From the NCBI RefSeq assembly GCF_003018255.1, contig NZ_CP027440.1: a stretch of 64,000 nt of DNA; one strand, 5' to 3'. The notes under the pieces were generated by a model that did not search any database, was not told the DNA's origin, and saw nothing but the letters and a program-made list of their open reading frames with translations. Shown piece after piece: positions 18,484-19,704 of this stretch. Made by a program: the position numbers and the translations under genes. Position 1 is the stretch's first letter; each line of letters opens with the position of its first letter. The stretch comes from Escherichia coli. GTDB taxonomy: Bacteria; Pseudomonadota; Gammaproteobacteria; Enterobacterales; Enterobacteriaceae.

Positions 18484-19704
18484 ATGTTTTTGCATATTTT
18501 ATTATTTATCTTCATGCTTTGTTATTATCTGATTTCTAAAGGTAATATTAAGTTATTTTTATTTTTCGTATTAATATATTCTTTTGGCTTGTCATTTGAA
18601 ATGGTTAATGAATATTTTTTTTCGTTAACTCCAACAGTTCATTTCAATTCGATTATTTTATTATATGTTGCTTTATGTAATATCCTGATATTTACCCTAT
18701 ATTACAAGTTATCAAAGAACGGTATTTGGGGATGTGCGATATACGCCGCTGCGATTACCGCTATTTCAGCGATAAAAATATCAATCCCATTAAACCCAAT
18801 AATATTATATTATAAATACAACCTATTTATTCTACCGCAAACAAATTCTCCCTTGCTTAATCTGTATGTTATAAATTTATTACCAGCATTATTTTTTTGT
18901 TGTGATTTTAAAAAAATAATGCTGGTAATTCTATGCTATTTGGCTATGATATTACCCTGTCGCATGCTAATTTCAGATAAAATACCAAAGAGTAATATCG
19001 CTGTTATTCAAGTTGGTCTTTATTATAAAAATGGAGGGACACCTGAAAGGTTTTATAATGACATGGCGAAATTTATAAAAGAAAACAGTGTTGACCTTAT
19101 TGTTTTTTCTGAGAATGTTTACTTTGGTTATAAAAATGAAGTTATTAAAAAAAATACGGATGATTTGTTACTAAAGATTAAAACTGATTCAACACTTAAG
19201 CAAAAAGCATTTTTATTTAATTTTTTTGGATACAAAAAGTTTAATAATGTTATATCCATGTTCTTGCATGTGGATAATTCGCAATTACATCAGAAAACAG
19301 CATTAATTCCTTTTATAGAAAAAAGAGGCGTATTCAATGCTCCAGAAAAGCTTTCATCAGAATATCTAAATATCGATAAAAAAATAAAAAATAATAATAC
19401 ATTTAAGCTTCATGGCTTAAGTTATAGCATATATATATGCTATGAAGCACTGTTTCCTGAAAAATATGTACACAACGGGGTCGTAATAACACAATCTGAT
19501 TACATAAGACTTAATAACGGTAGGGGATATAAGACTACATTGGTTAACGGTAGCTTACTTGCAAAGTTTTCCGTTGCACCAAACACCAAGTTAATAAATG
19601 TCCAGAATTATGGTGGAACTATTGTTTTTAATAATGATTGGGAAATTGACTGGGATATTTATAACAAATCCAAAAAAGAACATTTTTTTGTGGTTACTTT
19701 ATAA
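18484..19704 (+). CDS. aatD: Lnt-like N-acyltransferase (CN-hydrolase domain with N-terminal polytopic membrane domain; AatD-like)
   Basis: 406 aa; hydrophobic N-terminal approx 170 aa; C-terminal domain has VFSEN (E210), QKTALIPFIE (K271) and ICYEALFPE (C319), matching the Lnt E-K-C triad motifs. Confidence 0.65.
   Translation: MFLHILLFIFMLCYYLISKGNIKLFLFFVLIYSFGLSFEMVNEYFFSLTPTVHFNSIILLYVALCNILIFTLYYKLSKNGIWGCAIYAAAITAISAIKISIPLNPIILYYKYNLFILPQTNSPLLNLYVINLLPALFFCCDFKKIMLVILCYLAMILPCRMLISDKIPKSNIAVIQVGLYYKNGGTPERFYNDMAKFIKENSVDLIVFSENVYFGYKNEVIKKNTDDLLLKIKTDSTLKQKAFLFNFFGYKKFNNVISMFLHVDNSQLHQKTALIPFIEKRGVFNAPEKLSSEYLNIDKKIKNNNTFKLHGLSYSIYICYEALFPEKYVHNGVVITQSDYIRLNNGRGYKTTLVNGSLLAKFSVAPNTKLINVQNYGGTIVFNNDWEIDWDIYNKSKKEHFFVVTL

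Follow-up and report, generated by a model that had tools for sequence, protein, structure and literature searches.

A horizontally acquired chromosomal island of Escherichia coli very probably encodes AatD, an Lnt-like acyltransferase dedicated to an Aat (CexE/dispersin) secretion system

The DNA analysed in this study, hereafter the window, is a stretch of 64,000 nucleotides from Escherichia coli in which a small AT-rich island interrupts ordinary chromosomal genes. The first 12 kb (cusCFBA, pheP, ybdG, nfsB, ybdF, ybdJ and ybdK) are shared, at 95-99.7% identity, with thousands of E. coli chromosomes. Past the island, the usual ent, fep, cstA, ahp and cit genes follow in the annotated reference stretches that span most of the window. 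The flanks of the island (cus, pheP, ent, fep) are E. coli chromosome at 99.7-99.9% identity, and an origin of the DNA from Citrobacter rodentium or from an ETEC plasmid was accordingly rejected. The annotation of the left edge of the island was transferred by offset from the RefSeq record of a 99.9% identical chromosome, NZ_AP045067.1 of strain JNE23-011. In that chromosome the aat island is inserted between ybdK and entD, in the order IS4 fragment, 120-aa hypothetical protein, permease, TolC-family protein, HlyD-family protein, ABC ATPase, 'carbon-nitrogen hydrolase family protein' and degenerate IS630. The start of aatB is that of the RefSeq annotation of an identical genome. The features of the island are as follows.

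13023..13780, minus strand: left edge of the island, made up of a hypothetical gene with a frameshift and a fragment of an IS4-family transposase (RefSeq annotation), where the G+C content starts falling
14331..14693, plus strand: cexE/aap-like gene for a 120-aa secreted protein with a signal peptide ending NAFA/GGSG (slash, cleavage site), the predicted AatD substrate
14730..14759, plus strand: terminator-like hairpin and T-run between cexE and aatP, with a 13-pair stem and a T-rich tail
14775..15902, plus strand: aatP, FtsX/LolC-type ABC permease, 48% identical over 369 aa to AatP of EAEC 55989 (E 4e-121)
15899..17113, plus strand: aatA, TolC-like outer-membrane channel, 35% over 390 aa to AatA of EAEC 55989 (E 3e-75)
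17037..17849, plus strand: aatB, HlyD-like periplasmic adaptor, 48% over 271 aa to AatB of EAEC 55989 (E 5e-84)
17846..18475, plus strand: aatC, LolD-like ABC ATPase, 62% over 208 aa to AatC of EAEC 55989 (E 2e-90)
18484..19704, plus strand: aatD, Lnt-like glycine N-acyltransferase of 406 aa, with six predicted transmembrane helices (about residues 2-160) and a predicted periplasmic nitrilase-fold domain (about 165-406)
19852..20787, minus strand: right edge of the island, a degenerate IS630-family transposase with frameshifts and an internal stop (RefSeq annotation, IS630 matches)

The G+C content drops from about 50% to 27-35% over 14.0-19.5 kb and returns to about 50% afterwards, and this drop between flanks of ordinary composition indicates that the island was horizontally acquired. 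Of 5426 complete E. coli genomes, only 3 contain the whole of the region 13000-21000, each time on the chromosome and with 99.8-99.9% identity. In one of these three, that of JNE23-011, the aatA ORF stops early (NZ_AP045067.1, L001:8899-9975) and encodes 358 aa, against 404 aa in the window, which points to inactivation of the outer-membrane channel in one carrier strain at least. An IS3-family element with two ORFs and a programmed frameshift also lies in this part of the chromosome, at 21905-23262 on the minus strand between fepA and entD; this insertion within the enterobactin fepA-entD transcription unit might affect entD expression.

The ORF of aatD runs from ATG to stop and occupies exactly 18484..19704 on the plus strand in the six-frame ORF list, as had been claimed in an earlier reading made from the letters of the DNA alone (the sequence-only reading). 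Being 1.2 kb long in DNA of about 27% G+C, it is far beyond what chance would produce. The motifs named in that reading are present in the translation, VFSEN with E210, QKTALIPFIE with K271 and ICYEALFPE with C319; the Glu of the second motif is E279. The first 165 residues are strongly hydrophobic, as proposed, and the contrast in length with the 512-aa Lnt of the same genome is real. Database searches recovered 38 relatives of the product. A full-length MAFFT alignment of 33 family members has 31 invariant columns, E210, K271, E279 and C319 among them, and all 31 residues are kept in the window protein. By tblastn the product shares 39% identity over 96% of the query with the annotated aatD of EAEC 55989 (E 2e-68), and 37% over the aligned part with AatD of ETEC H10407 p948 (32% over the full length). 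Since the full-length family members found measure 400-426 aa, the compactness of the protein is a trait of the AatD family and not a peculiarity of the window gene. In the protein collection the exact AatD sequence occurs on 39 contigs, and its 90% cluster has 254 members, many of them partial, whereas the exact CexE-like sequence occurs on 792 contigs. Either a diversity of aatD alleles or the fragmentation of the AT-rich island in assemblies could explain this gap. The RefSeq names vary. The same aatD is a 'carbon-nitrogen hydrolase family protein' of 406 aa in one genome and an 'apolipoprotein acyltransferase' in another (L005:6602-7705), where an internal start yields 367 aa without the first membrane helices. 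The CexE homologue is a 'hypothetical protein', no gene of the cluster is called Aat or CexE there, and none of the HMMs in NCBIfam mentions an Aat protein or CexE by name.

The neighbours of aatD follow the order P-A-B-C-D on one strand and are collinear with the annotated aat operon of EAEC 55989. None of the six window genes, cexE-aatPABCD, is interrupted, and measured against the EAEC proteins all of them are full length. The aatC product has LolD/FtsE/MacB-type NCBIfam matches, and the TolC family match of the aatA product is weak. Only 8 bases separate the aatC stop from the aatD start, in agreement with the rule of Icke et al. by which linked aatD genes are no more than 39 bp away from aatC (PMC7943197). 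At the other end of the cluster, the product of 14331..14693 is 31% identical to CexE of ETEC H10407. Conserved between the two are both Cys residues, the last part of the signal peptide and the Gly-Gly with which the mature protein begins. The cleavage region NAFA/GGSGW of the window protein aligns with SAIA/GGGNS of ETEC CexE. An identical sequence, WP_001561605.1, is a listed CexE homologue in the supplements of PMC7943197, with a SignalP signal-peptidase-I site AFA-GG at 18/19. The cluster therefore contains a gene for a protein with the marks of a cognate CexE/Aap-type substrate, namely a Sec signal peptide, a signal-peptidase-I site and an N-terminal Gly in a G/S-rich start. The hairpin at 14730-14759 that follows it may, to judge from its sequence, attenuate transcription and so set how much substrate is made relative to pump, with more cexE than pump transcript.

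To examine the relation of the aatD product to Lnt, 13 AatD relatives were aligned by MAFFT with the 512-aa Lnt encoded in the same genome, and 14 columns of this alignment are invariant. E210, K271 and C319 fall in the same columns as Lnt E267, K335 and C387, and because of this pairing the objection that the triad might not be equivalent to that of Lnt falls away. E279 shares its column with Lnt E343 and ETEC AatD E286. Taken together, E210, K271, E279 and C319 of the window align with E217, K278, E286 and C325 of ETEC AatD, the positions at which Ala substitutions were used by Icke et al. to probe the requirements of CexE acylation (PMC7943197). In one study of EAEC 042 (PMC7478709), AatD C316A had little phenotype. 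The window protein also keeps the K-x-x-L-x-P-F-x-E and C-Y-E motifs of Lnt. The best NCBIfam match of the product is TIGR00546, the Lnt equivalog (E 3.5e-9), but its score of 36.3 bits lies well below the curated equivalog cutoff of 132.9. The Pfam CN_hydrolase (PF00795) match is marginal (E 0.0016); the alpha-beta-beta-alpha fold and the Glu-Lys-Cys triad place the protein in this nitrilase/C-N hydrolase superfamily. A phmmer search of the PDB with the single product gave no match, and an HMM built from 33 AatD relatives did not reach Lnt in the PDB, giving instead spurious matches to dCMP hydroxymethylase (E about 0.1). With hhalign, the AatD profile matched the single Lnt sequence with negligible probability, yet the K and C motifs were aligned correctly. 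Links between AatD and Lnt drawn from sequence are thus weak, and the case rests on the TIGR00546 profile, the multiple alignment and the fold. The real 512-aa lnt adjoins corC about 75 kb away on the same chromosome; the window gene sits in the low-GC island and not at this housekeeping corC(ybeX)-lnt locus.

Structure prediction bears out the claimed kinship with Lnt. The AlphaFold2 model, made from the 33-sequence alignment, is confident (mean pLDDT 91.7, pTM 0.90), and in Foldseek comparisons its fold is Lnt-like over the whole length. The top 21 matches in the PDB are all Lnt of E. coli or P. aeruginosa (E down to 1.6e-10, TM about 0.62), and soluble enzymes of the nitrilase superfamily rank after them. 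The structural alignment spans 365 residues with Lnt, membrane domains included, against about 200 with the soluble enzymes. The model has long helices at 2-18, 22-44, 56-77, 80-96, 123-139 and 142-160 and a short helix at 105-112; its last element is a beta-strand, at 401-405. The aatD product has no hydrophobic segment at its C-terminus, whereas Lnt has one at 489-509. Crystal structures of Lnt show eight membrane helices, on both sides of the nitrilase domain and including a C-terminal helix; in the AatD model the nitrilase domain is not flanked by helices on both sides. Compared with E. coli Lnt (P23930; PDB 5N6H, 6NWR, 8AQ2), AatD is about 18% identical and 106 residues shorter, it has no counterpart of residues about 24-44 or of the helix 489-509, and several of its periplasmic loops are shorter. 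The Lnt segments without a counterpart are 4-14, 24-44, 152-163, 275-284, 423-436, 463-482 and 497-512, with boundaries that are approximate at 18% identity. AatD thus appears to lack one N-terminal helix, the C-terminal helix and several loops of Lnt, and these two helices and the loops account for the difference of 106 residues.

The loop charges also speak to the topology of the protein. Across the 33 AatD sequences Lys and Arg are concentrated in the very short loops 1, 3 and 5, with 2.3 basic and 0.06 acidic residues in the 4 positions of loop 1, and loops 2 and 4, which are longer, have a neutral or acidic character. The positive-inside rule, applied to this pattern, predicts that the N-terminus lies in the periplasm, that the chain spans the membrane six times and that the catalytic domain is periplasmic, the last of these being the location that the sequence-only reading called for. 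AatD is therefore predicted to consist of a polytopic membrane domain followed by a nitrilase-fold domain that faces the periplasm, a placement that would be consistent with a Sec-exported substrate.

The AatD family and its substrate class have already been characterised experimentally, in 2020-2021 (PMC7478709, PMC7943197), and the window allele is part of published analysis. Belmont-Monroy et al. 2020 (PMC7478709) showed that EAEC needs AatD, a homologue of Lnt, to acylate and export dispersin (Aap). Icke et al. 2021 (PMC7943197) report that AatD is necessary for mono-palmitoylation of the N-terminal Gly of CexE and Aap, and the abstract of that paper also describes it as sufficient; according to the same source, a single N-terminal Gly is enough for acylation on a heterologous protein. 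N-palmitoylation has been shown by mass spectrometry or 17-ODYA labelling for ETEC and EAEC (as given in PMC7943197 and PMC7478709), and RoseTTAFold and ColabFold models of AatD superpose on Lnt (review, PMC8689077). In the literature the substrate of AatD is a soluble protein with an N-terminal Gly and not a diacylglyceryl-Cys lipoprotein, and, unlike Lnt, AatD is not essential.

The window system resembles those of ETEC H10407 (p948) and EAEC 042 and 55989 (pAA) in several respects. Its aatD directly follows aatC in a cexE/aap-aatPABCD cluster, and the product falls in the same length class (406 aa here, 403-414 aa there) with six-helix membrane and nitrilase domains. The catalytic E/K/E/C stand in equivalent columns, and the cognate protein is small and has a signal-peptidase-I site, after which come a Gly and a G/S-rich start. 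However, identity is only 37-39% for AatD and 31% for CexE, and in contrast to the plasmid-borne aat genes of ETEC and EAEC, the window cluster is chromosomal, between ybdK and entD. Neither AggR, CfaD or Rns nor fimbrial genes are linked to it; on ETEC p948, for example, cfaD and an ANR gene lie near aatD, and none is annotated near the window island. A much closer relative is the AatD that E. coli KTE75 encodes; its C-N hydrolase domain (L3QDZ2_ECOLX/165-406) shows a single difference from the window protein, Arg in place of Ser315. The neighbouring CexE homologue of KTE75, WP_001561605.1, is identical to that of the window, and its AatP has the adjacent number WP_001561606.1; with RefSeq numbers of the form WP_0015616xx, the aat genes of KTE75 belong to the same chromosomal locus family. 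In PMC7943197 the KTE75 protein (UniProt L3QDZ2) serves for phylogeny only and not for experiments. Because the AatD domain, CexE homologue and AatP of KTE75 are in the supplements of that paper, the locus type has already been catalogued as an Aat system. A sister cluster occurs on several mobilizable E. coli plasmids (for example pSTEC299, NZ_CP022280.1, and the 57-kb CP056265 and NZ_CP103973). It is collinear over cexE-aatPABCD at 79% nucleotide identity, with an AatD that is 70-71% identical and also of 406 aa, but it differs from the window in lying on plasmids and in belonging to a different allele group.

From these results we conclude that 18484..19704 is very probably AatD, an acyltransferase dedicated to an Aat (CexE/dispersin) secretion system whose genes lie on a chromosomal island of horizontal origin. 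The proposal of a specialised Lnt-like N-acyltransferase, distinct from the housekeeping enzyme, is thereby upheld by the aat operon, by the gene for a Gly-start substrate in the cluster and by the lnt located elsewhere in the genome. Gene order, homology, residue equivalence, fold, charge-based topology and the signal peptide and Gly start of the substrate support this directly; the chemistry and the lipid donor are inferred by homology to ETEC/EAEC AatD and Lnt. By that analogy, the CexE-like protein would be exported by Sec and cut by signal peptidase I after Ala18, exposing Gly19. AatD in the inner membrane would form a thioester between Cys319 and an acyl chain that is probably palmitate from phosphatidylethanolamine, with Glu210 as the base and Lys271 and Glu279 in stabilising roles, and would pass the chain to the alpha-amino group of Gly19. 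The LolCDE-like ABC transporter AatP/AatC would then extract the mono-acylated protein, which would reach the cell surface by way of AatB and the TolC-like AatA.

Other readings of the gene deserve consideration. The RefSeq name 'apolipoprotein acyltransferase' implies a second, redundant N-acyltransferase for diacylglyceryl-cysteine lipoproteins, which would fit the fold and catalytic residues shared with Lnt and the TIGR00546 match. Lnt is also reported to complement an EAEC aatD mutant (PMC7478709), and the two specificities may therefore overlap. However, the TIGR00546 score reaches 36 of the 133 bits required, the real lnt stands beside corC in the same genome, and the window gene lies within an aat operon with a Gly-start substrate and encodes a protein without two of the Lnt membrane helices. 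In ETEC, moreover, Lnt did not acylate CexE and AatD acted on the N-terminal Gly (PMC7943197), so that redundancy with Lnt is very improbable. That the protein is a generic carbon-nitrogen hydrolase, an amidase or nitrilase acting on a small molecule as its other RefSeq name would have it, is exceedingly improbable. Its six-helix domain aligns with the membrane domain of Lnt, the structural alignment is much longer with Lnt than with soluble enzymes (365 residues against about 200), and the Lnt-specific K-x-x-L-x-P-F-x-E and C-Y-E motifs are conserved in an operon of Aat type.

The gene could also be an AatD by descent that is now a silent or decaying relic, on an island eroded by IS elements and devoid of an AraC-type activator. 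Remnants of IS4 and IS630 flank the island, which is found in so few complete genomes (3 of 5426), and aatA is cut to 358 aa in JNE23-011. No AraC/XylS-type activator of the AggR, Rns/CfaD or RegA type is annotated in the near-identical reference stretch that covers most of the window, and no ANR-type small regulator is annotated near the island. The AT-rich 530 bp 5' of the cexE-like gene (13800-14330) contain no ORF of at least 60 aa, and a sigma-70 promoter scan was uninformative in this AT-rich DNA (31 sites against 36 expected). The decayed IS flanks and the truncated aatA of one carrier genome make expression and function uncertain, and the Aat system may be silent or decaying in some strains. 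For the window itself we consider a relic improbable, since its six genes are intact, AatD keeps 31 of 31 family-invariant residues, and the exact proteins recur on 39 (AatD) and 792 (CexE-like) contigs. AT-rich islands, besides, are commonly silenced by H-NS and switched on by regulators encoded elsewhere.

The AatD assignment adds nothing new on the mechanism of these enzymes; it documents a rare chromosomal and divergent allele, and its practical value lies in annotation, because the RefSeq names hide the aat/cexE identity of the genes. As to how the island is controlled, we may speculate, as a rather unlikely possibility, that this chromosomal subtype, with no linked AraC-type activator, departs in its wiring from the plasmid-borne systems of EAEC and ETEC, answering to a chromosomal or environmental regulator and coating the surface of E. 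coli lineages other than the classical diarrhoeagenic pathotypes. As to the change of substrate, the loss of one N-terminal helix and of the C-terminal helix could have switched the enzyme from membrane-anchored Cys-lipoproteins to soluble Gly-start proteins. AatD-type enzymes make an unusual class of bacterial lipoprotein, N-palmitoylated on glycine, and have been proposed both as targets against virulence and as tools with which to make acylated peptides; they are needed for the surface display of CexE/dispersin coat proteins, which promote gut colonisation.
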